From Escherichia phage 121Q, in the sequence record NC_025447.1: a stretch of 64,000 nucleotides of DNA. One strand, given 5' to 3'. Numbering within the stretch: position 1 is the first letter of the stretch; the number at the start of each line of letters is the position of its first letter. Of the stretch, positions 40,559 through 59,514 are shown piece after piece. The notes under the pieces are model-generated. The model saw nothing but the letters and a program-made list of their open reading frames with translations. It searched no databases and was not told where the DNA came from. A program made the translations under genes and the position numbers.

Positions 40559-41076
40559 TAGAGTCTTTCTCGACTTGATAAAAATATTATAGCAGTACTG
40601 AATTATAAAAGCAATAGCCTGGATGTAAAAAGTTTTAATTAATTTGCTTGTCATCCTGGGGCGTACTATGGTACTATGATTCAGTACTGAGAAAGTGCTA
40701 TGACCTGCTAAGGTGCGGGAGTGTATCCTTTTTAAATTTACTGAATTTTGGGCGTAATTCCGCACCCCCTGGGGTATCCGCTTTCTCGCGTCTATGTAGT
40801 AATTATACGCTTTTTTAGTACTGAGTCAATAGCTAAAAACAAAATAATTGAAAATAATTTAACGCGTTTAAACGGCCCGTAAAGCCCTGGTTAGCTGGTG
40901 GCGGTGCAAATGTATAGCTTAGGTGTATTAATGCGTTAGAATGCGATTGAGGACGTTTTACGGGGTATAGTACTGATTCAGTACTGAATAGTAGTACTGA
41001 AAGATTGTTCTCCCTGGATTGTTCCAGTACTCCTATATAGAAAGAAAACTATTTTAAAAGTATTTGTAGAAAGTAC

Positions 41077-41104
41077 TTGCAAAGTATTGGGAAAGGTGTA
41101 GAAT
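41077..41104 (+). promoter_or_regulatory. sigma70-like early promoter TTGCAA-N16-TAGAAT plus stem-loop
   Basis: AAGTACTTGCAAA -35 block, TAGAAT -10, GTTTTACATC, then ACGGGGGAAACGCTCCCGT hairpin. Confidence 0.55.
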
Positions 41105-41160
41105 GTTTTACATCGAGACGGGGGAAACGCTCCCGTTGCACTTTAAAAGAGATTAAAACG

Positions 41161-41523
41161 ATGGCGACTCAAATCAATACTATCATGCTTAACCTGGTTT
41201 CTTTCCGTGAAGAGATGAAAGATCTTCCCGCTGAGACTGTACGGATTCACATTGCAGCTTATCGGGAATTGATTGCAATGCTGCCGCTTAAGCGTGAACA
41301 GTATGCCGCTACTGCTATGCTCGATGCAATGATCCATAAGATGATCCAGACTGATTTAACGATGGCTTATCAGTACATGGGCGAAATGTTTGCAGTGTAT
41401 AGCAAGCCAGTACCAGGAATGGAAAGTACAGAAGTATTGCACGGCTTAAACTTAAAACAAGATGCATGGGATAATATGCCTCGTTTCCTGGTATGGGCTG
41501 ACAGTGGCAAGATTTACGAATAA
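41161..41523 (+). CDS. hypothetical protein
   Basis: start MATQINTIM after promoter/stem-loop (track ORF starts 41077 inside the promoter). Confidence 0.55.
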   Translation: MATQINTIMLNLVSFREEMKDLPAETVRIHIAAYRELIAMLPLKREQYAATAMLDAMIHKMIQTDLTMAYQYMGEMFAVYSKPVPGMESTEVLHGLNLKQDAWDNMPRFLVWADSGKIYE

Positions 41524-41537
41524 GTTTAATAAAGTAC

Positions 41538-41565
41538 TTGCAAACTAAGTTTAAAAGCGTATAAT
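41538..41565 (+). promoter_or_regulatory. sigma70-like early promoter TTGCAA-N16-TATAAT plus stem-loop
   Basis: TTGCAA 41538, TATAAT 41560, GGGGAATAGTTCCCC hairpin, SD AAGAGGA. Confidence 0.6.
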
Positions 41566-41617
41566 GTTTTATATCAGGTGGGGAATAGTTCCCCACTATA
41601 ATAAAGAGGATTTAAAA

Positions 41618-41857
41618 ATGGCTAAATCAAAAATGTTCTTAGGACACAAAAACAAAACTCATTGGAATGTTTCCTTATGGATTAATAATGACGAATCATT
41701 ATACCGGTTGGCCCAGGACTTTATTGCCGCTAACACTAATCGTAATGATGCGGCCCGTCATATGATGCTATTTTTAGAACAGACTGGACAAGATAAAACT
41801 CCAGACGGCTTTAAGTATAGCACTACTGCGATCCGTGCGGCGATGGTTGGAATGTAA
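41618..41857 (+). CDS. hypothetical protein
   Basis: ATG 41618 after SD AGAGGA. Confidence 0.6.
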   Translation: MAKSKMFLGHKNKTHWNVSLWINNDESLYRLAQDFIAANTNRNDAARHMMLFLEQTGQDKTPDGFKYSTTAIRAAMVGM

Positions 41858-41940
41858 GAGAATAGATTAAAAGTACTATTGCACGGTGATAGTACTTTAT
41901 AATAAAGTTCTTTTTGTACAACAACGATAGGGGTAACAGC

Positions 41941-42207
41941 ATGACTATTACATATTTTGCAACGCGTGAACTTGCTCGGATTGCCGCACGCCAGGACGGG
42001 GCGACGTTTAAAGATATGGGCGTACAATCTGAACGTGGTAAACGTTGGGCCGTAGTAAAGCAAAGTACAGCCCGATCAATTCAGTACTGGCGAGCGGCTT
42101 TAAAGCGTCCTGATAGTGTATCGCGTCGCGTGGTAGAAATAAAGCACGACCGCAAGGGCAATCGCGTTACCGTGTACCGTACTAAAAAGATTGCAGTACT
42201 TGAATAA
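41941..42207 (+). CDS. hypothetical protein, paralog of 53998 gene
   Basis: FATRELARIAARQDGATFKDMG..RWAV and HDRKGNRVTVY blocks shared with 53998-54393 protein. Confidence 0.6.
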   Translation: MTITYFATRELARIAARQDGATFKDMGVQSERGKRWAVVKQSTARSIQYWRAALKRPDSVSRRVVEIKHDRKGNRVTVYRTKKIAVLE

Positions 42208-42214
42208 AAAGTAC

Positions 42215-42242
42215 TTGCAAACTATGTTTAATGGCGTATAAT
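42215..42242 (+). promoter_or_regulatory. sigma70-like early promoter TTGCAA-N16-TATAAT plus stem-loop
   Basis: TTGCAA 42215, TATAAT 42237, GCGGGAACACTTCCCGC hairpin, SD GGAG. Confidence 0.6.
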
Positions 42243-42294
42243 GTTTTACATCGAGAGCGGGAACACTTCCCGCCTATAACCTGGAGTAATAAAA

Positions 42295-42525
42295 ATGACT
42301 AATATGTATATGACTGAAGTTAAAACCGTAAAAGATACTACCACGAATAAAACTACTTACTTACAGCGGATCTGCGGTGTATGGCAACGTATCAGCAAAT
42401 CAAAGTACTTTAAATTAACATCATATGCCAATCGTTCGGATTCATTCAGTACTGAAATAAAAGGTAATAAAGTACACCAATACGGCACTTATTATTATTA
42501 TAGCCTGGACGCGATTGCAGTATAA
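42295..42525 (+). CDS. hypothetical protein
   Basis: 76-aa ORF after promoter/stem-loop/SD. Confidence 0.55.
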   Translation: MTNMYMTEVKTVKDTTTNKTTYLQRICGVWQRISKSKYFKLTSYANRSDSFSTEIKGNKVHQYGTYYYYSLDAIAV

Positions 42526-42608
42526 GTAGTTTACAAATCTTTACAATTGCCAGTATTGACTTATTTTGTCAGTACTGGCATAATGTATCTATTGAAACGA
42601 ACAATTTG

Positions 42609-42621
42609 GCCCACGGGGTGC
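42609..42621 (+). repeat. dispersed CTAGCCCACNGGGTGC element copy
   Basis: GCCCACGGGGTGC followed by GGGAGTGTATCTAT. Confidence 0.5.
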
Positions 42622-42666
42622 GGGAGTGTATCTATAGAAAAAGTAGTTTATTACAGTTACAATTGT

Positions 42667-42678
42667 GCACCCGGTGGG
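42667..42678 (-). repeat. dispersed element copy (reverse orientation)
   Basis: GCACCCGGTGGGTTAG; paired with the 42609 copy as an inverted repeat. Confidence 0.5.
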
Positions 42679-42775
42679 TTAGCTGTTGTCATGGGGTATA
42701 TTATGCCAGTACTTGATAATGCTGTCAATACTTTTTTTTTACTATTCAGTACTGAAAACTATTTTTAAAAAGTAC

Positions 42776-42803
42776 TTGCAAACTATGTTTAAAGGCGTAT
42801 AAT
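42776..42803 (+). promoter_or_regulatory. sigma70-like promoter TTGCAA-N16-TATAAT driving a non-coding element
   Basis: TTGCAA 42776, TATAAT 42798; no ORF before the next promoter. Confidence 0.5.
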
Positions 42804-42809
42804 GTTTTA

Positions 42810-42890
42810 CATCAGGACGGGGAATGAAATAAGTAACTCCCTGTTAAGTAGTCCAGGAGTAAGACATACGAAAACCTCCCCTGATAAAAT
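42810..42890 (+). ncRNA. candidate small RNA or leader element (copy 1)
   Basis: about 80 nt behind a promoter, GGACGGGGA...TCCCCTG closing stem, no ATG-initiated ORF; near-identical copy at 52784-52858. Confidence 0.3.
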
Positions 42891-42893
42891 AGT

Positions 42894-42921
42894 TTGACAA
42901 AGATTTATAAAAGCGTATAAT
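42894..42921 (+). promoter_or_regulatory. sigma70-like promoter TTGACA-N16-TATAAT
   Basis: TTGACA 42894, TATAAT 42916, SD GAGGG before ATG 42954. Confidence 0.6.
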
Positions 42922-42953
42922 ACTTACATCAACTACTGAATGAGGGTTACAAA

Positions 42954-43565
42954 ATGAAAACTATCACTACTACTACTTTCGTTATGGCTTTTTCTGAACT
43001 GAACGCAGAACAACAAACGGCGGCTATCGAACTGGTTCGGGATCGGGAACGTGCAAGTGAGGATAATTTCTTTGCTGAGTCAGTACTGGAATACTATAAA
43101 GAAACAGTACTACCAGAATACGGCATAGATGAAGCTGAATTGCAATACAGTGGTTTTTGGTCGCAAGGTGACGGTGCATCAATCAGTACTGACCACGTTG
43201 ACGCTGAGAAGTTTTTACGCAAGGTTAAGGCGTTAACGAAATATCGTTCCATCCGTCACCTGTTGAACGAAGATGATTTGGAAATGAGTGTAGAACGTTC
43301 CCAATCGCGTTATGCACACGAAAACACGGTAGGCGGTTGCGTTGATACTCGCTACACTGATTTAACTGTAAAACAGGCGGCGTTAGCTGAGGAACTGGAA
43401 AATTTACTGACTGACACGATCCGAGAATTATCTTGTAAGCTGTACCGTGATTTAGAAAATGCTTATGAAGACCAGTTTACTACTGAAAACATTGTAGGAC
43501 TGATTGAGGGTAACGAATATCAATTTAATGTTATCGATGGTGTAGTAGAATCTATCGCATATTAA
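42954..43565 (+). CDS. hypothetical acidic protein (203 aa)
   Basis: long ORF behind consensus promoter. Confidence 0.65.
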   Translation: MKTITTTTFVMAFSELNAEQQTAAIELVRDRERASEDNFFAESVLEYYKETVLPEYGIDEAELQYSGFWSQGDGASISTDHVDAEKFLRKVKALTKYRSIRHLLNEDDLEMSVERSQSRYAHENTVGGCVDTRYTDLTVKQAALAEELENLLTDTIRELSCKLYRDLENAYEDQFTTENIVGLIEGNEYQFNVIDGVVESIAY

Positions 43566-43623
43566 TTCAGTACTGAATCACTGGCGGGGAATGGTTCCCG
43601 CCTATATCCCAGGAGTAAGAGAA

Positions 43624-43860
43624 ATGATCGAACAAATCAAAACTACAACGCCAAACGTAACGGGTACAGTATCACACTTCATTGGTGACGATTCGCGGGG
43701 CGTTCCTTATTGTGCAGTACATGTAAACAAAAATGGCGACTACTGGCTAACGGTTTACGGTTCTTATTCTTTCGGGCGTAGTGCACACCAAAAGATCCTG
43801 GATAAAGTACAACCAACGGGTAAAAATATCACCGCTGAGATGTTTTATAAAAAGCACTAA
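43624..43860 (+). CDS. hypothetical protein
   Basis: ATG 43624 after GGCGGGGAATGGTTCCCGCC stem-loop and SD AGGAG. Confidence 0.6.
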   Translation: MIEQIKTTTPNVTGTVSHFIGDDSRGVPYCAVHVNKNGDYWLTVYGSYSFGRSAHQKILDKVQPTGKNITAEMFYKKH

Positions 43861-43867
43861 AAAGTAC

Positions 43868-43895
43868 TTGCAAAGTAATTAGATTAACGTATAAT
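43868..43895 (+). promoter_or_regulatory. sigma70-like early promoter TTGCAA-N16-TATAAT plus stem-loop
   Basis: TTGCAA 43868, TATAAT 43890, GCGGGAATAGTTCCCGC hairpin. Confidence 0.6.
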
Positions 43896-43945
43896 ACTTT
43901 ATATCGAGAGCGGGAATAGTTCCCGCCTTTACTGAGGATTATCTA

Positions 43946-44230
43946 ATGGGTAAAGTAATTAACTATACAGTACTAAGCAAGTCATTATCTATTAGCCAGT
44001 GCACCGATGGTTTTTGGCTGTACGATGAAACGCGTGGCATGAATTTAGCTATGCAGGAGAAAACTACTGATGCGGCATATCTTAAAGCACTGGAATACTA
44101 CCAGAAGCGTTTAAAGGAAGTAGAAAACGATTATAATAACCTGAAAGCGAAAGTAGATCATTTCGTCGGTCAATTCATTGACGATGACGAGGACGGGCAC
44201 TACTGCGACCGTTGCGGATCTTACAATTGA
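43946..44230 (+). CDS. hypothetical protein with C-terminal CxxC
   Basis: SD TGAGGA; ends HYCDRCGSYN. Confidence 0.6.
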   Translation: MGKVINYTVLSKSLSISQCTDGFWLYDETRGMNLAMQEKTTDAAYLKALEYYQKRLKEVENDYNNLKAKVDHFVGQFIDDDEDGHYCDRCGSYN

Positions 44231-44247
44231 GTACTGAGGATTATCTA

Positions 44248-44451
44248 ATGAGTGATTTAATTAAACGTATCAAAGAGCTTGAAGAAAAAGAATTGCAGTT
44301 GATCGGGTTACGGAATAAAGTATTCCATGATTTAGGTGGCTTCATTAATGCCTGGGATAGTGGCGATCCTGATGCGTTACCTGCTAACCGCCAGGCGATG
44401 ATCAATGATGTGCGTGGTGTCTTTGATTATGTTTTAAAGCAATTAAATTAA
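44248..44451 (+). CDS. hypothetical protein
   Basis: ATG 44248 with the same CTGAGGATTATCTAATG initiation region as the 43946 gene. Confidence 0.6.
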   Translation: MSDLIKRIKELEEKELQLIGLRNKVFHDLGGFINAWDSGDPDALPANRQAMINDVRGVFDYVLKQLN

Positions 44452-44459
44452 AAAAGTAC

Positions 44460-44487
44460 TTGCAATTAGTTTTCAGTACTGTATAAT
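44460..44487 (+). promoter_or_regulatory. sigma70-like early promoter TTGCAA-N16-TATAAT plus stem-loop
   Basis: TTGCAA 44460, TATAAT 44482, GGGGGAAATGGTTCTCCCC hairpin, SD AAGGAG. Confidence 0.6.
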
Positions 44488-44537
44488 AGTTTACATCAAG
44501 GGGGAAATGGTTCTCCCCACTAATAAGGAGTTTTACA

Positions 44538-44759
44538 ATGGCTAATATCACTACTCTTTCCCAGCTTGAAGCACTGGTTAAATCTATGCGGGAACATGCC
44601 GACAATATCGGCGTAGAAGATCCGGCTGTATGTTTTTGCGACGAAATAAATGATGATACGCTCGTCATTGCAGAAGTACAAGACGTTTCTAACTATTCAT
44701 CGCGTTACACTGGCGGCGTAGCAAAGAAAGGTGATTTTTGTTTATATCTTACTAAGTAA
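44538..44759 (+). CDS. hypothetical protein
   Basis: 73-aa ORF after promoter/stem-loop/SD. Confidence 0.6.
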   Translation: MANITTLSQLEALVKSMREHADNIGVEDPAVCFCDEINDDTLVIAEVQDVSNYSSRYTGGVAKKGDFCLYLTK

Positions 44760-44765
44760 TAACCA

Positions 44766-44792
44766 GGGGGATCAAACGATCCCCTTTATTTT
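44766..44792 (+). terminator. intrinsic terminator
   Basis: GGGGGATC-AAAC-GATCCCC hairpin then TTTATTTT. Confidence 0.7.
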
Positions 44793-44824
44793 GCAGTACT
44801 GAATCATTTAATAGACGGATCTAT

Positions 44825-44836
44825 GCACCCTGTGGG
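44825..44836 (-). repeat. dispersed element copy (reverse orientation)
   Basis: GCACCCTGTGGGTTAG inside an about 80-bp block also seen at 42667-42740. Confidence 0.5.
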
Positions 44837-45005
44837 TTAGTGACTATCTCGTCTTTATGTAGGTATTATGCCAGTACTGGATGCAGTTGTCAAGACTTTT
44901 TTTTCAAATACTTTTATATTAAAGTACTTGATAATAGTTTTTAAACGCGTATAATGTTTTACATCTAATCGGGAATACTCCCTAGTACTAACAAAGGATA
45001 TACAA

Positions 45006-45305
45006 ATGAAAACTGCAATCATCGCCCTGGCTTTATCTGTTTCCTCTTTCGCTGTTAACGCTTCCGTTGATGTACAGAAAGAAAAATTCATTCAGTGCAC
45101 TGTTGCAATGACTAACGAGGAAACGGCTGAGATCGTTACCAAATCCCTGGAACTGGCCCCTGCAATGTTTGCTAATGGCCCGTACCATGAAGAAGATGAT
45201 CAGGGTAGCACGACCATCTATTACGATGCAAAAAGTAAACGCGGTTCTGTCACTGTAATGGATACAGAGAAAGTTACATTCACTGGCGTAATTAATTGTT
45301 TATAA
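45006..45305 (+). CDS. secreted small protein, Cys-pair family
   Basis: signal peptide MKTAIIALALSVSSFAVNA; Cys in mature N-terminal region and Cys 2 aa from end. Confidence 0.65.
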   Translation: MKTAIIALALSVSSFAVNASVDVQKEKFIQCTVAMTNEETAEIVTKSLELAPAMFANGPYHEEDDQGSTTIYYDAKSKRGSVTVMDTEKVTFTGVINCL

Positions 45306-45322
45306 TATAGTACTGAATCACT

Positions 45323-45352
45323 AGCCCACTATAAGGAGTGGGCTTTTTTTAT
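45323..45352 (+). terminator. intrinsic terminator
   Basis: AGCCCACT-n6-AGTGGGCT hairpin then TTTTTTT. Confidence 0.75.
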
Positions 45353-45543
45353 TGTAGGATTGTAGTACTGGTATACTTTGAAAATAGTTTTAAAAAAGTA
45401 GTTGACATTACCAGGGAAAAGCGTAGAATGTATTACATCAAGACGGGGAACATTAAGTAGACCGCCAGTAAGTCGAATGAAAAACTGGACACGTCAAACA
45501 AACTTTGATAAACTAACTTAAACTTTAATTGAGGATTTATAAA

Positions 45544-46026
45544 ATGGCTAATGTAAAATCATTTCTGAAAGCACTGATTTCTAACGATACTGTCATTGCT
45601 GCTGAATTGCTGGCTGACCTGGATAATGATACCATGAAAGCAGTACGCAACAATTTTAACATTGCTTACAGTGAAGCGAAAGAACTACAAGCCAAAAAGG
45701 TAGCAGAACTGGAAGAACAGAAAAAAGCCCGTGAAGCAGAACTGCAAGCAACAATAGAAAGTATTCAGGCGGCGGTGTCTGGTTTAGATCTGGAAGTGGT
45801 TATTGAAATGGCACATAAAGCCCTGGCGGTTAAGTACGGTGAAGATAAGCCGGAATCTAAGCCTAAAAAATGGATTCAAGAACGTGTTACGGTTGTCCTT
45901 GATAACGGGGAAGAACATTTGATTCCTGTACGCGGTAACTGCATTGCGGTAGTACTGGATGCTATCAAAGAAAGCGGTATGACTCGCGAGGAATGGATCG
46001 AATCTCACCGCAAAATTGAAGCATAA
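45544..46026 (+). CDS. hypothetical protein, Lys/Glu-rich helical
   Basis: ATG 45544 with SD GAGGA; upstream TTGACA-N17-TAGAAT promoter at about 45407. Confidence 0.6.
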   Translation: MANVKSFLKALISNDTVIAAELLADLDNDTMKAVRNNFNIAYSEAKELQAKKVAELEEQKKAREAELQATIESIQAAVSGLDLEVVIEMAHKALAVKYGEDKPESKPKKWIQERVTVVLDNGEEHLIPVRGNCIAVVLDAIKESGMTREEWIESHRKIEA

Positions 46027-46047
46027 CATTTAAAGTACTGAATCACT

Positions 46048-46074
46048 AGCCCACTTATACAGTGGGCTTTTTTG
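46048..46074 (+). terminator. intrinsic terminator
   Basis: AGCCCACT-n5-AGTGGGCT hairpin then TTTTT; same element as 45323. Confidence 0.75.
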
Positions 46075-46300
46075 TGTCTATAGTATTCCATGCCGTCAGC
46101 ACCTCATAGAATCGATTCTAACGCATTAAACTGATTATCTGATGCATCGCCCTAGCTGGTGGAGTTAAGGCCGTTAGAATGCGATTGAGAGCGTTTAAAG
46201 TATTTTGCAAAAAGTAATAAAAAGTACTTGCACGATTCAGAGATTAGCGTATAATGTTTTACATCAAGGCGAAACACCTTAACTAACTGAGGATATAAAG

Positions 46301-46453
46301 ATGAATACTTATGAACTGGATTGTTTCACGTTACAAGTAATGTCAGTATGCAGCAAGAAAGATTGGTCATCAAAGGAATTTAAAGCAGTTATTGCGTGTG
46401 CAAAACACGGCAAGACTATCAATGAAACGGCATCAATCATTGATAAACTTTAA
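46301..46453 (+). CDS. hypothetical small protein (50 aa)
   Basis: not in ORF track; SD TGAGGA 8 nt before ATG; downstream of TTGCAC...TATAAT promoter. Confidence 0.45.
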   Translation: MNTYELDCFTLQVMSVCSKKDWSSKEFKAVIACAKHGKTINETASIIDKL

Positions 46454-46461
46454 AAAATAGT

Positions 46462-46489
46462 TTGACAATAGTTTTAAGTACTGTATAAT
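46462..46489 (+). promoter_or_regulatory. sigma70-like promoter TTGACA-N16-TATAAT
   Basis: TTGACA 46462, TATAAT 46484. Confidence 0.6.
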
Positions 46490-46522
46490 ATTTTACATCA
46501 ACTACTGAGAAGGATTTAAAAA

Positions 46523-46750
46523 ATGGCTATCATCATCACTTACGTATCTGGCACTACTGGCACTTCTAGCACTGTTGCAGTACTGACCAACAAGAAAGGT
46601 GCGGAACTTCATTCTGCAATGAATACCTGGGCGGTGAATGAGTTCGGTCAGTGGGCTAGTGTAGAATACATTGAAACCTATCAAGTGCCGTCTATTAGCT
46701 TAACTGATTTAGGTGTAGATCGTATCCTTTGCCTGGATGAATTAAACTAA
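46523..46750 (+). CDS. hypothetical protein
   Basis: 75-aa ORF, SD AAGGA. Confidence 0.6.
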   Translation: MAIIITYVSGTTGTSSTVAVLTNKKGAELHSAMNTWAVNEFGQWASVEYIETYQVPSISLTDLGVDRILCLDELN

Positions 46751-46835
46751 AAAGTACTTGCAAAGTAAATCGGATAAAGTATAATACATTACATCAAGGG
46801 GAGAAATGATTCTCCCCACTAAGAGGAAACTAAAA

Positions 46836-46979
46836 ATGAAAACTTGTCAATGTGGTAAAAAATCTATCACTGGTTTGAAACGGGGCGTTGCTCTTTGTCA
46901 GTATCACTATAACGCTCAAGTATGGGGTAAAGAGTGGGCAGACCAGGTGGAAGCTGTAAAGAAAGCAAAAAGTAAGTAA
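46836..46979 (+). CDS. small Cys-containing protein (47 aa), possible zinc ribbon
   Basis: not in ORF track; promoter, GGGGAGAAATGATTCTCCCC stem-loop, SD AGAGGAA; CQCG...LCQYH. Confidence 0.45.
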   Translation: MKTCQCGKKSITGLKRGVALCQYHYNAQVWGKEWADQVEAVKKAKSK

Positions 46980-53159: not shown

Positions 53160-53211
53160 ATTTTACATCAAGTGGGGAATAGTTCCCCACCTAACAAAGA
53201 GAGAAATTAAA

Positions 53212-53487
53212 ATGCGGATTCTACTGACAGCTAACGAAATCGAGCAAGTACTGACTACTAACCTGGAAGACTGGAAACGTGATGCAGATATCCAGGCGGT
53301 GCAATGGCTCAATGATAAGTTAACGCCGGATGATTTAAGTAAGATTGTAGATCCACAATTCTATGAAGATATTCACGACACGGCTTTAAGCGTCGAGGAT
53401 GTACTTGATAAGCACTACATTGATATTGATTTGCAGGTTTACGGTCGTAAAAACTTTATCACTATTCACGACATTTATAATAATTAA
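53212..53487 (+). CDS. hypothetical acidic protein
   Basis: 91-aa ORF after promoter/stem-loop/SD. Confidence 0.6.
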   Translation: MRILLTANEIEQVLTTNLEDWKRDADIQAVQWLNDKLTPDDLSKIVDPQFYEDIHDTALSVEDVLDKHYIDIDLQVYGRKNFITIHDIYNN

Positions 53488-53574
53488 GTATTGACAAAGT
53501 ATCTTAGTACTGTATAATAGTTTACATCAAGGCAGGGGAATGGTTCCCCTCCTAACTAAAAGAGAGAAATTAAA

Positions 53575-53898
53575 ATGACTATGATCCTTACCCAGAAAGT
53601 AGAAATGAAAATTGTAACTTCCTTTGACATTAAAGTCAATCGGTGGACTGATAGCCACGGCAATACTTACCACTCATGCTACGTGTCTGCATTGATTGGT
53701 GACCGCTGGGAAGACCTGGGACATGAAACCTTTACTTACGGTTACGGTACACAAGGCGAATACACGGGCTTGGAGATCATTAAAGAAACTGTAATAGGTT
53801 TCAACCCGAAAGAGAAAGTACTACACAGAATTGAGGATGAGATCAACAAAGAAATTACAGTTCGTTACTACGATGTAAAACGTAAGAAAGATATGTAA
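53575..53898 (+). CDS. hypothetical protein, paralog of 47365 gene
   Basis: shared NRWTDSHGNTYHSCYVS and FTYGYG blocks; promoter and stem-loop upstream. Confidence 0.65.
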   Translation: MTMILTQKVEMKIVTSFDIKVNRWTDSHGNTYHSCYVSALIGDRWEDLGHETFTYGYGTQGEYTGLEIIKETVIGFNPKEKVLHRIEDEINKEITVRYYDVKRKKDM

Positions 53899-53997
53899 TA
53901 GAATCCATTTAAAGTACTATTTGACATTGCCCAGATAGTACTTTATAATAGACTCTAACTTGTAGTACTAATTAACTTAACTAATAGGATGTACACC

Positions 53998-54393
53998 ATG
54001 ATTACTAAATTCTTCGCTACCCGTGAACAAGCTCGCATCGTTGCCCGTGAAGAAGGTGAAACATTTAAAGACATGGGCAAAGATGCACCGAAAGGACAAC
54101 GCTGGGCGGTACAGTTCAAAGAGATCTCTGATATTGTGAATTCACCTGAGCCTGTACTTACAGCAGCAGAACTAAAGCAAGCTCAAGAACTGGCTGAAGT
54201 ACTGAACGCTCAAGATGACTTTTTGAAAGGTTCTGATATTGAAGTTACAGTTAACGCAAATGCATGGACTCACGCGGATCACCTGGCAAACCTTAAGCGT
54301 CCAAGTGAACTGATTCGTAACCAGAAAGAGATCCGTCATGACCGTAAAGGAAACCGTGTAACAGTATACAGTAAACGCCGCCAGGTTATCTAA
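53998..54393 (+). CDS. hypothetical protein, paralog of 41941 gene
   Basis: ATG 53998 (SD TAGGA); shared FATREQARIVAREEGETFKDMG and HDRKGNRVTVY blocks. Confidence 0.6.
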   Translation: MITKFFATREQARIVAREEGETFKDMGKDAPKGQRWAVQFKEISDIVNSPEPVLTAAELKQAQELAEVLNAQDDFLKGSDIEVTVNANAWTHADHLANLKRPSELIRNQKEIRHDRKGNRVTVYSKRRQVI

Positions 54394-54416
54394 TAACTTT
54401 GCAGTACTAACAACAC

Positions 54417-54442
54417 GGCGGGAATATTTCCCGCCTTTTTTA
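54417..54442 (+). terminator. intrinsic terminator
   Basis: GGCGGGAA-TAT-TTCCCGCC hairpin then TTTTTT. Confidence 0.75.
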
Positions 54443-54455
54443 TAGGATAAACAAA

Positions 54456-54710
54456 ATGATTAAGGTTCAACTATCAAACGATAATGTATTACGGGTACAC
54501 TATAAAGCTCCACAGAGAATCATCACAAAGGCCGTACAGCTTGCTAATGAGTTTATTAATGGTAGTCTATTGCCTAGGAAGTTAAGCAACGGGAAACTAC
54601 GTGTAATCGACGTAGACACTAACAATAGAATAGTGATCGAGAGTACTGGAAAAATTAATCTATATGAACACCAACAATACAATAAAAAAATAAAACTAAT
54701 ATCACGTTGA
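54456..54710 (+). CDS. hypothetical protein
   Basis: 84-aa ORF, SD TAGGA. Confidence 0.55.
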   Translation: MIKVQLSNDNVLRVHYKAPQRIITKAVQLANEFINGSLLPRKLSNGKLRVIDVDTNNRIVIESTGKINLYEHQQYNKKIKLISR

Positions 54711-54763
54711 CAGTACTCAAATGTTTTAGTATTATGTATCTATACCAACACAGGAGAAACAAA

Positions 54764-54982
54764 ATGAAATTATCTAAAATCGAAAAGAAAACTATTGATG
54801 AAGCAGTGAAGCACGGTTATACCTTTCGTAATGATTCACACTTCACCAGTTTTCAACAGGGAAACCGTACCATCAAAAAACTCATTGATAAAGGTTTACT
54901 CACTAAGGTTGATAACGGGAACGGTGTAGAATATCAACCGACAGAAGACGCATTATCACTAAAGAAATATTCTATTATCTAA
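54764..54982 (+). CDS. hypothetical protein, possible winged-helix DNA-binding
   Basis: ATG 54764 after TTGACA...TATTAT promoter and SD AGGAG; winged-helix call is a weak guess from RTIKKLIDKGLLTK. Confidence 0.55.
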   Translation: MKLSKIEKKTIDEAVKHGYTFRNDSHFTSFQQGNRTIKKLIDKGLLTKVDNGNGVEYQPTEDALSLKKYSII

Positions 54983-55039
54983 TTGACAGTACTCAAATGT
55001 TTTAGTACTATGTACGCATACCAACACGGGGAAAACAAA

Positions 55040-55282
55040 ATGATTACTTTAGAAAAACGTATCAAAGAGACTACAACGCTGGTGGAACTGTTAACCGTTC
55101 TTAAATGCCGGGTAACTCCATTCAGTACACCGGACTTTATCAACATGGTGGACGTTAACGGTCGCTATCGTATTGCGGTCGAACAAGGTACGGCAAAAGT
55201 ATTCAGTACTAAAAATACGCGTGAAGTATTCCACGCAGTTCAAGTAAAAAAAGTAGTTGCCATTGATAGTAAAGTACTGTAA
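55040..55282 (+). CDS. hypothetical protein
   Basis: ATG 55040 behind a duplicated copy of the 54711-54763 promoter/leader. Confidence 0.55.
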   Translation: MITLEKRIKETTTLVELLTVLKCRVTPFSTPDFINMVDVNGRYRIAVEQGTAKVFSTKNTREVFHAVQVKKVVAIDSKVL

Positions 55283-55313
55283 TATAGTTTCATTAACTCA
55301 AGGAGTCAACACA

Positions 55314-55898
55314 ATGCGTAACTATACTAAATTCATCCGTTCACTTCATGCAATGGAAACCAACAAAGAGATCCTTTCAGCTTGTCGGTTAGCTGGACTG
55401 GAGATCGTCGGTGCGGGTTCTTCCCGTATTGTATTCGCTTTAAATGATCGGTTAGTGATTAAGGTCGCGAATTGTGATGCGGGTGTAGAACAAAATGAAA
55501 CTGAATGTAAGGTATGGAATTTTTTAGATTATGACCGTCCGCACCTTAAACAGTTCTTTGCCAAGGTGCATATGCATTTATGCGATCCTGATAATCTGCT
55601 TATTGTTATGGATCGTTTGAGTACTGCAAGCAAAGGCAGTGTAAAGCACGTAACCGCATGTAATGAGTTAAAGTACAATATTAAACGTAACACTATTGAA
55701 CGCCATCACCATTTCGCTGATGCTCTCAATCACGTTGATGATACATTATCCACACTAACGATAAGAGATATCAGAAAACAGAATATCGGCCAGGATCGCA
55801 ACGGCTTGATTAAAGTACTTGATTACGGTTTAACCCGCAATATCTGGAATCAGTACTATAAAAAACGTGATGTTAACGCGATAACTATAACACGATAA
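55314..55898 (+). CDS. protein kinase-like protein
   Basis: GAGSSRIVF Gly-rich loop, VIKV lysine, RDIRKQN catalytic-loop-like and VLDYG motifs; SD AAGGAG. Confidence 0.6.
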   Translation: MRNYTKFIRSLHAMETNKEILSACRLAGLEIVGAGSSRIVFALNDRLVIKVANCDAGVEQNETECKVWNFLDYDRPHLKQFFAKVHMHLCDPDNLLIVMDRLSTASKGSVKHVTACNELKYNIKRNTIERHHHFADALNHVDDTLSTLTIRDIRKQNIGQDRNGLIKVLDYGLTRNIWNQYYKKRDVNAITITR

Positions 55899-55912
55899 AA
55901 AAGATTAAAAAA

Positions 55913-55938
55913 GGGATTGACTCCAGTCAGTCCCTTTG
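55913..55938 (+). terminator. intrinsic terminator, variant hairpin
   Basis: GGGATTGACTCCAGTCAGTCCC then TTTG. Confidence 0.65.
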
Positions 55939-55969
55939 CTATTATATATTCATTGAGAGATAACTCACT

Positions 55970-55983
55970 GACCCATAGGGTGC
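55970..55983 (+). repeat. dispersed element copy
   Basis: ACTGACCCATAGGGTGCGGAAGTGTATCTAT. Confidence 0.5.
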
Positions 55984-56122
55984 GGAAGTGTATCTATTAT
56001 ATAAGTATTCAGTACTGAAAACTATTTTATAAAAAGTACTTGCAAACTATCTCAATGAGCGTATAATGTTTTATATCGAGAGGGGGAAATGGTTCTCCCT
56101 GGTACTAAAAGGAATCAAGACG

Positions 56123-56344
56123 ATGGCTACTATGACCTGCGTTCACGCTTCAAATCTTCTGAATGATGCAGCATTTAAAGCAGGTGAAGAATATCAATGC
56201 TATCGGGATGAAAATAAAAAAGTTTTCGTCGTTGATGCTAACGGTTTCCATATTGAATTGCAATCCGGTTTCACTGGCATTGATGGTAAATCTGTATGGG
56301 GCGTCCAGGACGATAACGGCACATATCATTTTAAACGTAATTAA
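56123..56344 (+). CDS. hypothetical protein
   Basis: ATG 56123 after promoter, GGGGGAAATGGTTCTCCC stem-loop and SD AAGGAA. Confidence 0.6.
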   Translation: MATMTCVHASNLLNDAAFKAGEEYQCYRDENKKVFVVDANGFHIELQSGFTGIDGKSVWGVQDDNGTYHFKRN

Positions 56345-56347
56345 GTA

Positions 56348-56375
56348 TTGACAAAGTATATCAGTACTGTATAAT
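56348..56375 (+). promoter_or_regulatory. sigma70-like early promoter TTGACA-N16-TATAAT plus stem-loop
   Basis: TTGACA 56348, TATAAT 56370, GGGGAGAATAGTTCTCCCC hairpin. Confidence 0.65.
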
Positions 56376-56428
56376 AGTTTACATCAAGGGGAGAATAGTT
56401 CTCCCCACCAATAAAAGGAAACAAAATT

Positions 56429-56701
56429 ATGTCCAGCTACTCCGCTACTATGATTATTAAAGATATGAACGGTAATCCTACTTCTGCTGGTGGATCATTT
56501 GGTAACATTAATTTAGATGGGCGGTTATCAATTGAATCAGCCATCAATGCAGCGAAAGAAGTTTTTAAGAATGAATGTACTGTAAGCAAGCTGGATTATA
56601 TGGGCTTCGCTATCGAGAAAACTAATCGTTTTGTGGACTACAAAAAACCACTGATGATTGATACTAACCTGAAAGCAAACGAAGTGGAATACTTATTATG
56701 A
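56429..56701 (+). CDS. hypothetical protein
   Basis: 90-aa ORF, SD AAGGAAA. Confidence 0.6.
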   Translation: MSSYSATMIIKDMNGNPTSAGGSFGNINLDGRLSIESAINAAKEVFKNECTVSKLDYMGFAIEKTNRFVDYKKPLMIDTNLKANEVEYLL

Positions 56702-56889
56702 CAGTAGAAGAAGTTAAAAAAGTACTGGCAGTACTACGCTATCATAATCATTGTAAGGTGAAGAATGATCCTGATTATCTTGATTCATCGCTGGAAGAGG
56801 ATACACTACAAGCAATAAGCCATATGCAAAAAATGCTTAAGCGTATGACCGAAAAGAACAGGCCGGACTATATCGGAAATAAAATTTAA
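56698..56889 (+). CDS. hypothetical protein
   Basis: 63-aa ORF overlapping upstream stop. Confidence 0.55.
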   Translation: MTVEEVKKVLAVLRYHNHCKVKNDPDYLDSSLEEDTLQAISHMQKMLKRMTEKNRPDYIGNKI

Positions 56890-56972
56890 AAAGTACTTGC
56901 ATTGTAAGTAAAACAAAGTATAATGTTTTACATAGGGGGAGATATCCTCCCCCACTAATAAGGAGTACTAAA

Positions 56973-57197
56973 ATGGCTAACTTTGATGAACTGATGCGGG
57001 AAGTAGCTACCCTGGCAGAAGAGAAGAAATCATTTGATTCTATCTATAACACCGCTTACAGTGATTCAGTACTGGCATGTACTCAGGATCAAAAAGATGA
57101 ACTGATCGCCACCTATCATGAAGCATGGAAGTATTACCGCCAATGGGAGAAAGAAGAAAGCGAGTCTACCATCAACGGCATCAATAATCTAATCTAA
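56973..57197 (+). CDS. hypothetical protein
   Basis: promoter, GGGGGAGATATCCTCCCCC stem-loop, SD AAGGAG. Confidence 0.6.
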   Translation: MANFDELMREVATLAEEKKSFDSIYNTAYSDSVLACTQDQKDELIATYHEAWKYYRQWEKEESESTINGINNLI

Positions 57198-57271
57198 AGT
57201 TTTATTTCAGTACTATTGACAATGCGTGATAGTACTGATGTGATAACTTTACTAACTAAAGGGGAAACATA

Positions 57272-57529
57272 ATGGAACAGTTCACACAATATCGGGTAAA
57301 TCCTCAAGCTATGGCCTACGTAGAAGACCATAAAACGTTACCAGTACTAACACCAATTAAAGGCCATATCTATCGTGCTATGCAGTGGAATAACGCCTAT
57401 AATGGCTATAAAGCGGTATCCGCTGCAATGTACTTAGGGGATGGCGAATGGTTTGATCCAAATAATCCTGGTGCACTCGATAGTACTGAAAAAATGACAT
57501 GGGCCGACTATATCGAAGATATCTCATAA
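57272..57529 (+). CDS. hypothetical protein
   Basis: 85-aa ORF behind TATTGACA...GATGTGATAACT promoter-like block. Confidence 0.55.
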   Translation: MEQFTQYRVNPQAMAYVEDHKTLPVLTPIKGHIYRAMQWNNAYNGYKAVSAAMYLGDGEWFDPNNPGALDSTEKMTWADYIEDIS

Positions 57530-57617
57530 AAACTATTTGACAGTACTACAAGATAATGTATAATGTTTTACATAGAGCGGGGGAATAGTTCTCCCGCACC
57601 TTTAGGAGTAAAACATT

Positions 57618-57818
57618 ATGTCAATCGCTAACGAATTGGTTGCAGTACTGAATGAAGCAAAAGCCAACTGCATCGATGTACAGATCAAAGAGCTTGGCAA
57701 TGGCTTGATCGGCTGTACTTGTACAGTGCAAACGGCTACCGATTATCGGGAAGTGGAATCACTCGAATCACTGGTACGGTATATTAAAATCCTGGTAGAA
57801 GATTGGAGAATCATCTAA
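57618..57818 (+). CDS. hypothetical protein
   Basis: promoter, GCGGGGGAATAGTTCTCCCGC stem-loop, SD TAGGAG. Confidence 0.6.
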   Translation: MSIANELVAVLNEAKANCIDVQIKELGNGLIGCTCTVQTATDYREVESLESLVRYIKILVEDWRII

Positions 57819-57837
57819 CAAAAAAGAATAAAAAAAG

Positions 57838-57863
57838 GGATTGACTCCGGTCAGTCCCTTTGC
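57838..57863 (+). terminator. intrinsic terminator, UCCG-loop variant
   Basis: GGGATTGACTCCGGTCAGTCCC then TTTG. Confidence 0.7.
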
Positions 57864-57889
57864 TATTATATACGCATAGACAAAAACTA

Positions 57890-57903
57890 GCCCACTGGGT
57901 GCA
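57890..57903 (+). repeat. dispersed element copy
   Basis: ACTAGCCCACTGGGTGCAGAGAAGTATCTGT. Confidence 0.5.
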
Positions 57904-58074
57904 GAGAAGTATCTGTAAGATAGTTAATAACGGTGAGTAACTATCTGCTGGTGGATGTAATTCCAGTACTCAAAACTATTTCAAAAAAGTATTGACAAAG
58001 TATAGCAGTACTGAGATAATGTATCTCGTAGGGCGGCAATAGTGCAGCCCACCTCCAAAAGAGCGAGATATAAA

Positions 58075-58290
58075 ATGGCGTTAACCAAACAAGAAATTAT
58101 CGACCGTATCAAAGAGTCAACTGGCTGGTATGTTGGGGACCGTTTAATTGTTAAAGTTCTCGATTATTCAAATAATCCTCTTGCACCGGAACCAGTGGCA
58201 TACAAATTATCCTGGATATCTGCGTTTAGCGGTAAGCGTGAAAGATGTGTGTACTATCCGAACACCGTCGGGCTACAGTTCTGTAAATAA
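58075..58290 (+). CDS. hypothetical protein
   Basis: ATG 58075 after TTGACA promoter and SD AGAGCGAGA; track start 58042 lies in the leader. Confidence 0.55.
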   Translation: MALTKQEIIDRIKESTGWYVGDRLIVKVLDYSNNPLAPEPVAYKLSWISAFSGKRERCVYYPNTVGLQFCK

Positions 58291-58390
58291 ATTTTAATAG
58301 AAAAAGTATTGACAAAGTATATCAGTACTGCAATAATGTATCTCGTAGGGCGGCAATGGTGCGACGGCCCACAAAGTTAGGAGATTCAAA

Positions 58391-58717
58391 ATGAGTACTT
58401 CAATCGCTATCGTTAAAGCTTTCATCCGTACCAATTTCGACCGCATTACTGTTGATGGTAATGATCGGGAAGTAGAATACTCTTTCATTGTTGCACAAAC
58501 CGCAAACGGTGCACGCTATATCTTAAATGACAGTGAAGCTAACCACTACTTCTATAATAAAGGATTACACTACATCCCTAGCGAAGTAGTCTACACTAAG
58601 ATGAATAAGCTGGTAGACAAGATTAACGCTAAAGGTACTATCGATTTACAGTACTGGAGCGAAACCGAACCAGAATACGGATCACATCGTTACCTGAATC
58701 CAGGAATTAAAATGTAA
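58391..58717 (+). CDS. hypothetical protein
   Basis: 108-aa ORF, SD TAGGAG, behind duplicated promoter. Confidence 0.6.
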   Translation: MSTSIAIVKAFIRTNFDRITVDGNDREVEYSFIVAQTANGARYILNDSEANHYFYNKGLHYIPSEVVYTKMNKLVDKINAKGTIDLQYWSETEPEYGSHRYLNPGIKM

Positions 58718-58806
58718 AAAGTACTTGCATTGTACTTAGAATCAAGTATAATGTTTTACATAGAGAGGGGGAAATGGTTCTCCCTCCTAAATTAAGGAGT
58801 TTTATC

Positions 58807-59208
58807 ATGACCTTCTCAATCACTTCCTTCGCTGACGTTTTAGTACTGGCTCGGACTTTTGGTAAAGATGCACTGGAGTACGCTGTAAGTAATGGCACTC
58901 TCCAACCGGAACAATGCCGCATCATTGGAAACTGTAAACGTTGGGCGGTATCCAATACTATTGCACTAGAAAACTTCAACGATGGTAACAATGAGTATTC
59001 AGTTGATGCAGTATTCGAAGCCGTTGATCTTGGCGGTATCTATAACACTAACCTAAATGATGTGCGTATCGTTCGCACGGGGTTCGGTGCTTATGATGTA
59101 TCTATCCGTGAAGCTATGAACACCGGATACATTAGTAAGGACTTACTTGCTCACATCATGCAGCTATGGACGGAACGTAACGAAGCACGCACTATCTTAG
59201 GACTATAA
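58807..59208 (+). CDS. hypothetical protein
   Basis: ATG 58807 after promoter, GAGGGGGAAATGGTTCTCCCTC stem-loop and SD AAGGAG. Confidence 0.6.
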   Translation: MTFSITSFADVLVLARTFGKDALEYAVSNGTLQPEQCRIIGNCKRWAVSNTIALENFNDGNNEYSVDAVFEAVDLGGIYNTNLNDVRIVRTGFGAYDVSIREAMNTGYISKDLLAHIMQLWTERNEARTILGL

Positions 59209-59276
59209 GCATTACACATCACCAAACATCATAGGCCGCTCTCTAGCGGCCTTAACTATATCAGGAGTACATACAT

Positions 59277-59486
59277 ATGTTCTATACAGTATACAGCGTT
59301 CTAGGTACTATTGCTGGCGTACATGATAACGTCGCTGATGCTATGCGTACAGTACTAACACAAGTCCCCCTCAAGCCTAAGACTGTTAAGCAGATGACAG
59401 CTAGACTTACCAGGGCTGGCGATGGCGTGGAAGTATGGCAGGACTACGGGGATACACAGATAATCGTTAGCGTAACGAAGGATTAA
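59277..59486 (+). CDS. hypothetical protein
   Basis: 69-aa ORF, SD CAGGAG. Confidence 0.55.
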   Translation: MFYTVYSVLGTIAGVHDNVADAMRTVLTQVPLKPKTVKQMTARLTRAGDGVEVWQDYGDTQIIVSVTKD

Positions 59487-59514
59487 TGCGTAAAGGGATC
59501 TAGTACTGATTCAG

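Follow-up and report, generated by a model that had tools for sequence, protein, structure and literature searches.

What is the function of some 18 kb of phage DNA in which the same promoter, hairpin and ribosome-binding signals recur in front of one small open reading frame (ORF) after another? The question is raised by a 64,000-nucleotide stretch of the genome of Escherichia phage 121Q (NC_025447.1), referred to here as the window, in which such units, termed cassettes, fill the interval 41040-59500. A preliminary description of this DNA, made from its letters, had likened the units to the promoter-early stem-loops (PeSLs) found in hyperplastic regions of T4-type genomes and thought to mediate modular gene shuffling. 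The analysis described below confirms the repeated units of promoter, stem-loop and Shine-Dalgarno (SD) sequence, and supports that interpretation in part. The array probably represents a set of immediate-early expression cassettes carried in a long terminal repeat, which double as recombination joints.

Organisation of the cassette array

Direct reading of 40.5-60.5 kb gives a common layout for the unit, consisting of AAAAAGTACTTGCAAA or AATAGTTTGACAA, a spacer of 16-17 nt, TATAAT, (G)TTTTACATC, a GC hairpin, an SD sequence and an ATG, while the block upstream of the promoter reads AAAAAGTA or AAAATAGT. A motif scan followed by curation yielded 44 sigma-70-type promoter units and one degenerate unit, with 52 small ORFs, between 41077 and 58809 on the + strand, which goes beyond the count of more than 25 given initially. 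The repetition is evident at the level of short words, with AAGTACTTGCA present 13 times, always on the + strand and within 40-60 kb, and GTTTTACAT present ten times, nine of them on the + strand and confined to the same 20 kb. A repeat search returned a 66-nt family of 20 copies together with overlapping families.

The promoters are far too numerous to be fortuitous. On the + strand of 39458-59639, matches to TTGACA-N16/17-TATAAT number 13 at 12/12 positions, 21 at 11/12 or better and 42 at 10/12 or better, against 0.04, 0.36 and 5.7 expected from first-order Markov simulations, and the - strand of the same interval holds 0, 6 and 10. A separate consensus scan found twelve 12/12 promoters on the + strand. 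Most promoters precede one to three ORFs, as had been noted, with a maximum of four (51963-52600). Initiation regions are indeed duplicated (e.g. 46973-47077, 47267-47371 and 49779-49883); the claim that genes are duplicated as well is weak, as only two paralogous pairs occur among the 52 proteins, at 36-38% amino acid identity. Cassettes, by comparison, share a mean identity of 61% with one another, and an origin of the array by tandem duplication of gene-plus-promoter units was rejected on this disparity.

Units may be grouped by signature and by hairpin. Class A is marked by AAAGTACTTGCAAA and class B by AATAGTTTGACAA, while class C carries CAGTACTATTGACA...GTACTGGCATAAT with a TG-extended -10 box and lacks a hairpin. 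Class D comprises composite hairpin/promoter units at 48918, 52612, 55910 and 57834. Approximately 20 units possess a hairpin of the form GGGRGAA-loop-TTCYCCC, with folding energies of -8 to -16 kcal/mol, five have a weaker or different hairpin, and 13, including class C, have none. Six further units on the + strand are non-coding and contain a CCCAYNGGGTGC motif; four of these are the class D units, in which a 12-bp hairpin encloses the -35 box.

Location within the terminal repeat

By megablast, the nearest relatives of the window are jumbo coliphages of the PBECO4/121Q/phAPEC6/G17 type, genus Asteriusvirus, at 86-90% identity over only 47-72% coverage. Position 1 of both the fEgEco12 and the vB_Ec-M-J genomes, AGTAGGCAGAGGAAGTCTGCCG, corresponds to window position 39458, and the right ends of their direct terminal repeats (DTRs) align at approximately 59640. 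Homology to these termini therefore points to a putative DTR of ca. 20.2 kb at 39458..59640 (+). Its size agrees with the repeats of ca. 20-21 kb in fEgEco12 (20,993 bp, with termini backed by restriction digests; PMC13070987), Sharanji (reported as 20,668 bp) and vB_Ec-M-J, where the stretch homologous to the array is annotated as DTR 1-21525. The interval given for the array in the preliminary description stands and would represent the gene-bearing part of this repeat, so that its setting is the long terminal repeat of an Asteriusvirus jumbo phage and not an internal hyperplastic region of a T4-type genome.

The confinement of the cassettes to the repeat extends across the genus. In the window and seven relatives, strong + strand promoters number 25-39 within the repeat and 1-10 outside, with hairpin-bearing promoters at 10-22 and 0-1, respectively. 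A class B cassette used as query matched 10-12 places in assemblies with a single repeat, compared with 17-23 in records containing both repeat copies. The hairpin-core pattern occurs at 18 loci in the window, all between 41580 and 58784, with none in the remaining 43.8 kb.

The 5' hairpin

Sixty-three unique hairpins from the window and the seven relatives retain the core GGG(R)GAA / TTC(Y)CCC, with outer stem pairs that vary between G-C, C-G, A-T and T-A. G.T pairs outnumber T.G pairs by 46 to 4, and hence the hairpin is well formed on the sense strand only. Among 44 hairpins with 3-nt loops, aligned without gaps, double-sided changes occupied 53 cells compared with 21.4 in shuffled sets, a value reached in none of 500 shuffles, and slid-control alignments all scored below that observed. 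A stable stem-loop of a G-tract and a C-tract is thus present (RNA form GGGGAGAAUAGUUCUCCCC), its pairing supported by covariation. Positions G8, A11, A12, T16, T17 and C20 are invariant across the 44 hairpins, while the loop varies in sequence and in length (3-5 nt). These loop-anchored sets were used in place of a MAFFT and RNAalifold treatment of cassettes anchored at the -10 box, which gave a poor consensus of five pairs owing to differing stem lengths.

The position of the hairpin is fixed on both sides. The stem begins 13-15 nt past the -10 box, corresponding to about +6 to +8 of the predicted transcript. From 142 unique cassettes, 141 had an SD-linked ATG, and in 135 of these the end of the stem lies 17-23 nt from the ATG (median 20, full range 14-25). 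Hairpins that lack a promoter, at 43583, 48052, 54417 and 59233, are likewise found 18-24 nt ahead of ATGs. The 8 nt following the stem contain on average 1.75 T and 3.9 A, and this A-rich rather than U-rich tail disfavours an intrinsic terminator in classes A and B. Consistent with this, the annotation of G17, made with ARNOLD, designates T-run hairpins and class D as terminators but, among the hairpins of the 5' untranslated region (5'-UTR), only one, an orthologue with TTTAC directly 3'. Such geometry suggests a module that is transcribed, acts at the level of RNA and is coupled to the start of translation, rather than one that is primarily a terminator. It might obstruct scanning or decay in the 5'-to-3' direction, shield the ribosome-binding site as an insulator, form a 3' barrier on read-through transcripts or offer a handle to a protein.

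Mosaicism and breakpoints

Colinear chaining against the seven relatives placed 33-41 of the 52 genes in synteny in any one relative, the shared parts being 88-92% identical. The ends of homology group into 43 breakpoint clusters, of which 28 fall inside cassettes; this coincidence, proposed beforehand as a check, compares with a cassette coverage of 23% of the region (binomial p = 5e-9), although cassettes also constitute 69% of its non-coding DNA. Several further clusters fall at a stop codon or no more than 4-13 nt into a gene.

Individual junctions fall at various points within the cassette. Identity with PBECO4 spans the whole 41538 cassette and ends at its SD (41608, between hairpin and ATG), after which the genes are unrelated, and resumes within the 3' arm of the 43910 hairpin, placing that crossover inside a hairpin. 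Homology with vB_Ec-M-J ends just past the start region of the 52864 cassette, where position 52906 is the end of homology for five of the seven relatives, and restarts at the -35 block of the 53491 cassette. The GNAT acetyltransferase gene, with a second cassette, is present or absent among relatives, with its left boundary in the promoter spacer of the 51196 cassette, immediately past TTGACAGTACT. Similarly, the cassettes at 54685-54767 and 54961-55043 are 81% identical but precede unrelated genes. Not every junction is of this kind. A non-coding island of 317 nt (50604-50920), absent from G17, phAPEC6 and EC22.5-2, is flanked by the 11-bp direct repeat GTTAAAATAAT instead of cassette homology; a unit of promoter plus CCCATAGGGTGC lies within it, as do clustered (T)GATCA(A) / GATC sites.

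Distribution beyond the genus

Sharing of these modules is not limited to Asteriusvirus. The module at 52769-53567, consisting of one gene and the cassettes that flank it, is found in two pieces at ca. 87-89% identity in Justusliebigvirus muut, which also contains more diverged homologues (69-72%) and the same cassette types. ORF 56698-56889 is ca. 87% identical in Vequintavirus phages, and Vequintavirus nimi carries a cassette of the 58309 type. The product of gene 58807-59208 has a homologue, at 36% amino acid identity, behind a PeSL of Krischvirus GEC-3S. Some of the genes common to these three phages are accompanied by cassettes and some are not. That three unrelated coliphage groups share repeat genes, at levels from 36% amino acid to ca. 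87-89% nucleotide identity, suggests repeated exchange over time. In addition, jumbo phages of Klebsiella, Salmonella and Erwinia carry similar cassettes (ca. 80% identity), which in two cases lie within annotated terminal repeats.

Gene content and predicted timing

The 52 ORFs are short (median 73.5 amino acids), with products belonging mostly to PHROGs of unknown function. Recognisable members are a DksA/TraR zinc finger protein (50932-51189), a GNAT acetyltransferase (51253-51609) and a kinase-like protein (55314-55898), the last a weak match under the Pfam cut-off. RNA-seq of the related jumbo phage PA5oct demonstrated that most of its repeat genes are highly transcribed early by the host RNA polymerase, and detected non-coding RNAs in the repeat (PMC7318152), while the host-takeover module of SPO1 sits in the terminal redundancy (PMC10531801). 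By analogy, there are good grounds to expect immediate-early expression of the repeat genes, each unit probably switching on one small early gene.

The repeats of these two phages resemble that of 121Q in packing tens of small genes, mostly of unknown function, into the terminal repeat, and PA5oct belongs to the same wider jumbo phage clade as Asteriusvirus. The pre-early region of T5 is a further early module of this kind carried in a long terminal repeat. In these systems the genes are read first by the host RNA polymerase from strong host-type promoters; in 121Q such early reading is predicted from the promoter consensus. A repeated hairpin-SD module and mosaicism at the level of the cassette were not described for these systems in the literature searched. 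Promoters of RpoD-like type with UP-like elements were also reported in the early region and repeat of the Rak2-like jumbo phage CBB (PMC5259590). As in 121Q, consensus sigma-70 promoters precede short hypothetical early genes and occur in the terminal repeat; CBB differs in having 18 promoters genome-wide, with three in the repeat, and neither a stem-loop module nor a role in shuffling was described (PMC5259590). Within the literature searched on the genus Asteriusvirus itself, repeats of ca. 20 kb are described but not their internal cassette organisation.

Relation to PeSLs

PeSLs were described in the T4-type phages RB49/phi1, PST and nt-1 (Arbiol et al., 2010, PMC2839356; Comeau et al., 2014, PMC4122927). 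As defined by Arbiol et al., they combine a sigma-70-like early promoter, an AT-rich upstream region and a GGGG...CCCC stem-loop. The latter is found in the spacer or across the -35 and -10 boxes, in the region 5' of both or directly ahead of the start site, and so outside the transcript that the promoter makes. PeSLs are concentrated in hyperplastic regions beside ORFans and at indel boundaries, and are able to form mini-circles (PMC2839356). Three PeSL units read in the RB49-type Krischvirus GEC-3S have the form AAAAAGTAGTTGACA...GGGGGTA[-10]TACCCC, with the hairpin straddling the -10 box.

Much of this anatomy recurs in 121Q, and the resemblance first proposed holds for the promoter, the upstream block, the stem-loop, the ORFans and the breakpoints. 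Both systems join an A/T-rich upstream block, which in GEC-3S is nearly the same (AAAAAGTAGTTGACA), to a near-consensus sigma-70 promoter, here in the large excess over expectation given above, and both possess a G-tract/C-tract stem-loop (ca. 20 hairpins in 121Q), an SD sequence and a small ORFan. Both are also densely arrayed where the genome varies most, which for the cassettes is the most mosaic 20 kb of the window, and both lie at indel or replacement boundaries between close relatives, with the caveat, for 121Q, of a general intergenic preference. A homologous ORFan is found behind a Krischvirus PeSL and behind a cassette of 121Q, and the layout of the four class D units is that typical of PeSLs, with a hairpin over the -35 box and spacer that looks terminator-like.

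The resemblance fails in the position of the hairpin, in the terminator tail and in the T4-type setting. The hairpins of the main classes A and B lie wholly downstream of the predicted start as 5'-UTR elements with an A-rich tail, whereas PeSL stem-loops are terminators; class D alone has its hairpin in a PeSL-like position. The array occupies a long direct terminal repeat rather than the internal hyperplastic regions of T4-type phages, and the genome is that of an Asteriusvirus and not of a member of the Straboviridae. Furthermore, blastn with a class B cassette returned no Krischvirus match at E <= 1e-3, so sequence homology with RB49-type PeSLs was not detected. Because the main classes depart in hairpin position, the array is better regarded as a PeSL variant in a terminal-repeat early module than as a strict PeSL.

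Proposed function and alternative explanations

Under the explanation considered probable, the cassette would be a portable unit of A/T-rich block, near-consensus sigma-70 promoter, in most cases a GC hairpin at about +6 to +27 of the transcript, an A-rich SD spacer of ca. 20 nt and a small ORF. Unmodified host RNA polymerase would fire approximately 40 such promoters right after DNA entry, yielding short immediate-early mRNAs of one to four cistrons that encode host-takeover proteins, including those of the DksA/TraR zinc finger and GNAT types. The hairpin would serve as a standard 5' RNA module that makes the message more stable and shields the ribosome-binding site from effects of the attached gene, and as a 3' barrier on read-through transcripts, rather than mainly as a terminator. 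Since units of 60-100 nt recur about every 400 nt, the cassettes would supply homology for recombination, and single genes could be gained, lost or exchanged with expression intact, whether between members of the genus or with unrelated coliphages in which these cassettes also occur.

Several points weigh against this explanation. With cassettes making up so much of the non-coding DNA, their share of the breakpoint clusters in that DNA (28 of 34) is not clearly above 69%; across seven genomes a preference for cassettes is for this reason inseparable from intergenic survival, and the breakpoints could reflect the survival of recombinants with intact genes and not preferential crossover. Transcription starts are predicted from the consensus only, and the repeat boundaries in 121Q are transferred by homology from relatives. 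If transcription starts 6-8 nt past the -10 box, the hairpin would be preceded by 5-8 unpaired nucleotides, a longer 5' overhang than classical end protection allows. Nor is the hairpin obligatory, given the 13 cassettes without one. Finally, the hairpins were selected by folding energy, which inflates the percentage of paired positions and leaves the double changes as the informative measure.

One alternative proposal is that the cassettes represent no more than strong early promoters with their leaders, kept similar by selection for expression, and are not preferred sites of recombination, recombinants that cut genes simply being lost. In its favour, the share of cassettes in the breakpoint clusters of the non-coding DNA does not clearly exceed their 69% share of that DNA, and the 317-nt indel has GTTAAAATAAT, not cassette homology, at its boundaries. 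The proposal nevertheless appears somewhat doubtful, as crossovers fall at varied positions within the cassette (the spacer, the stretch past the -10 box, the hairpin itself, the SD), near-identical cassettes are joined to unrelated genes, modules shared across genera end in cassettes, and the homology needed for T4-type recombination is less than 50 bp (PMC2839356). In a further alternative the hairpins are terminators or attenuators, as in PeSLs, so that each cassette would close the transcript arriving from upstream and open a new one, making of each gene an insulated transcription unit. The drop in lacZ read-through caused by a PeSL stem-loop matched that caused by rrnB T1 (PMC2839356), the four class D units follow their 12-bp hairpin around the -35 box with TTTGCTATTAT and are annotated as terminators in G17, and the single 5'-UTR orthologue with TTTAC behind it is annotated likewise. 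The class A and B tails are poor in T, however, and canonical T-run terminators exist in the region where termination is evidently wanted. A hairpin downstream of its own promoter would attenuate its own transcript, and termination has no need of a fixed distance between hairpin and ATG. For the array as a whole this is unlikely.

Also unlikely, and about equally so, is that the hairpin acts as a common recognition handle for a protein encoded by phage or host, such as an RNA-binding repressor, an endoribonuclease or a factor binding the extruded DNA strand, which would co-regulate the immediate-early messages, for instance in their shut-off. The core is conserved beyond the needs of pairing, through its six invariant positions, while the outer pairs covary, and the position relative to the ATG is fixed, with promoter-less hairpins likewise 18-24 nt ahead of ATGs. 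Set against these features, no candidate protein was identified, the loop varies, 13 cassettes manage without a hairpin, and the bias of G.T pairs to the sense strand sits poorly with an operator in double-stranded DNA. The immediate-early cassettes doubling as recombination joints remain the explanation that is considered probable.

Catalogue of units

All units described here lie on the + strand unless otherwise stated, and promoters are given as -35 box, spacer length and -10 box. Class A begins with 41077..41163 (TTGCAA-16-TAGAAT, hairpin 41117-41137, ATG 41161) and 41538..41620 (TTGCAA-16-TATAAT, hairpin 41577-41597, ATG 41618). It continues with 42215..42297 (hairpin 42257-42273, ATG 42295), 43868..43948 (43910-43926, ATG 43946), 44460..44540 (44501-44518, ATG 44538), 46758..46838 (46798-46817, ATG 46836), 48462..48541 (48502-48520, ATG 48539), 49058..49141 (49100-49116, ATG 49139) and 51613..51691 (51653-51671, ATG 51689). 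Towards the right end of the array lie 56040..56125 (56081-56100, ATG 56123), 56897..56975 (56935-56953, ATG 56973) and 58725..58809 (58765-58786, ATG 58807), and a class A variant at 46228..46303 (TTGCAC-16-TATAAT, ATG 46301) has a weak hairpin.

Two class A units, 42776..42893 and 52748..52863, have an expanded leader that reaches the next promoter and carries no ORF, of ca. 85 nt in the former. These ORF-less leaders (42798-42893 and 52770-52863, ca. 85-95 nt) each separate a class A promoter from a second one, and the repeat pair that spans them, 42740-42840 and 52712-52812, is ca. 84% identical. Within them is found a stretch resembling a decayed SD and start (CCAGGAGTAAGACATACG), and Justusliebigvirus muut also has a copy of the leader, at ca. 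4000-4090. Such leaders may have been left behind when genes between cassettes were lost, or may be non-coding RNAs.

All class B units have a 12/12 promoter. Those with a hairpin are 49492..49575 (49532-49550, GGGGAGAATAGTTCTCCCC, ATG 49573), 51886..51965 (51926-51945, ATG 51963, with four ORFs behind), 53132..53214 (53172-53190, ATG 53212, in the module common to Justusliebigvirus muut), 53491..53577 (53534-53550, ATG 53575), 56348..56431 (56388-56406, ATG 56429) and 57537..57620 (57577-57597, ATG 57618), while 42894..42956 (ATG 42954), 46462..46525 (ATG 46523) and 52864..52924 (ATG 52922) are hairpin-free. Class C is represented by 46999..47063 (no hairpin, ATG 47061), 47293..47367 (ATG 47365) and 49805..49879 (ATG 49877), and a C-like cassette, TTGACA-17-TGTGAT, is found at 57206..57274 (ATG 57272).

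The remaining cassettes are more varied. That at 44928..45008 (TTGATA-16-TATAAT, ATG 45006) has a weak 4-bp hairpin and precedes a product with a signal-peptide-like N-terminus, and 45402..45546 (TTGACA-16-TAGAAT, ATG 45544) has a leader of ca. 115 nt. Perfect 12/12 promoters drive 50084..50158 (no hairpin, ATG 50156) and 51196..51255 (ATG 51253, the GNAT acetyltransferase). Further units are 53921..54000 (TTGACA-17-TATAAT, no hairpin, ATG 53998), 54707..54766 (TTGACA-17-TATTAT, ATG 54764), its counterpart of 81% identity at 54983..55042 (ATG 55040, gene unrelated) and the weaker 55257..55316 (TTGCCA-17-TAATAT, ATG 55314). A different hairpin type, GGGCGGCAATAGTGCAGCCC, characterises 57992..58077 (TTGACA-17-GATAAT, ATG 58075), to which a cassette in Vequintavirus nimi is similar, and 58309..58393 (ATG 58391) is of the same type. 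The degenerate unit, 41879..41943, consists of TTGCAC, a 13-nt spacer and TATAAT without a hairpin; its gene (ATG 41941) is a paralogue of 53998-54393.

Hairpins without a promoter are located at 43583..43626 (hairpin 43583-43602, then SD and ATG 43624), 48052..48092 (48052-48071, ATG 48090, its orthologue annotated as a terminator in G17) and 59233..59279 (59233-59252, ATG 59277). At 54417..54458 the hairpin is a canonical terminator with a T-run (54417-54435), followed 20 nt further by ATG 54456. Other canonical intrinsic terminators (hairpin and T-run) occur at 44765..44786 (+), 45323-45344, 46048-46068 and 50306-50331.

Other motifs and flanking regions

Non-coding units built around CCCAYNGGGTGC number ten, six on the + strand and four on the - strand. 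Each has its own sigma-70 promoter and all are restricted to the repeat, with 8-10 copies in every relative. The motif, CTA(A/G)CCCAYNGGGTGC, sits 27-33 nt past the -10 box and its orientation is always that of the promoter. The class D members are 48918..48991, of PeSL-like layout (12-bp hairpin 48918-48945 holding the -35 box TTGACT, then N17 and TATTAT, with CCCACAGGGTGC at 48980-48991), 52612..52680 (hairpin 52612-52639, CCCACAGGGTGC at 52669-52680), 55910..55983 (hairpin 55910-55937, CCCATAGGGTGC at 55972-55983) and 57834..57902 (hairpin 57834-57861, CCCACTGGGTGC at 57891-57902). Also on the + strand, and likewise lacking an ORF, are 42556..42640, where TTGACT-17-CATAAT drives a CCCACGGGGTGC unit (42610-42621), and 50607..50675, where a class C promoter drives a CCCATAGGGTGC unit (50664-50675). 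The - strand carries 40546..40629 (TTTACA-16-TATAAT, CCCACCGGGTGC), 40762..40829 (TTGACT-16-TATAAT, variant CCCCAGGGGGTGC), 42667..42728 (TTGACA-17-CATAAT, CCCACCGGGTGC) and 44825..44893 (TTGACA-17-CATAAT, CCCACAGGGTGC). These units could be sites of protein binding or of pausing or loading, or short non-coding RNAs. A structured small RNA is unsupported, the sole consensus being an invariant 4-bp stem without covariation and without an Rfam match. More generally, Rfam searches at gathering and E-value thresholds gave no credible family for any element, and no tRNA or tmRNA genes were found.

Chi sites (GCTGGTGG) are enriched, with nine on the + strand of the repeat against ca. 0.07 expected and one in the other 44 kb. 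They are located at 40034-40053, 40894, 46155, 50321, 51782, 52700, 55078, 56486 and 57947. The lone opposite-strand Chi, at 40034, pairs with the copy at 40046 as a perfect hairpin, 576 nt from the putative left terminus. The pattern is kept in eight of eight relatives, with 8-10 co-oriented sites each, and the top-strand orientation is that active for RecBCD entering at the right genome end. Terminal Chi clusters are known from P1 and the lambdoid phage LLS (PMC12315714). A non-coding element, GTTAGAATGCG(A/T)T..AGGACGTTT, was also observed in three copies (40935-40958, 46173-46196 and 50377-50399), each within ca. 60 nt of a Chi, together with an inverted partial copy near 46110-46125.

The most over-represented hexamer of the window is AGTACT (often CAGTACTG), with 271 copies against 21.6 expected, a 12-fold excess. 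Its density per kb is 6.7 in the repeat (11.9 in the non-coding DNA of the repeat), ca. 3-3.7 upstream and 0.69 in 59641-64000. In alignments its sites are conserved at 81-91%, compared with 57-68% for other hexamers. It is frequent in promoter spacers and is also found at one indel junction. SlmA-binding sites (GTGAGTACTCAC) were rejected as the source of the excess, since two matches at up to two mismatches were found where 2.2 are expected.

Outside the repeat the organisation changes. Directly 3' of it come a single promoter (59678) and then, in 59706-64000, tight, overlapping ORFs of ca. 70 amino acids, which look paralogous and are not accompanied by cassettes. Upstream, at ca. 20000-35000 on the - strand, lies a run of large genes, given as RCC1-like paralogues in the annotation of relatives. 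The GC skew reverses near 20 kb and again near 40 kb.

Implications

A more far-reaching, and improbable, extension is that the terminal repeat is an integron-like exchange platform for host-takeover genes. A standard adapter of promoter, RNA hairpin and SD would allow any small gene to be slotted in with immediate expression, and such adapters would circulate in no fewer than three unrelated coliphage lineages, Asteriusvirus, Justusliebigvirus/Phapecoctavirus and Vequintavirus, with the PeSL as their counterpart in Krischvirus; the nine co-oriented Chi sites would recruit RecBCD-RecA and make the repeat recombination-hot, and the hairpin core would be the handle for a coordinated post-transcriptional switch.

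The explanation considered probable, that of immediate-early cassettes in the terminal repeat which double as recombination joints, would itself have consequences for the biology of these phages. If correct, it would give the Asteriusvirus jumbo phages a defined immediate-early regulon with approximately 40 predicted start sites, and would make them a second group, after the T4-type phages, in which cassettes mediate modular shuffling, with a different design where the hairpin is transcribed. It would also imply that small early-gene modules pass, together with their expression signals, between unrelated coliphage genera. In practical terms, the cassettes would be compact, strong and self-contained units for expression in E. 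coli, and would flag the ORFs likeliest to encode host-takeover or anti-defence functions.

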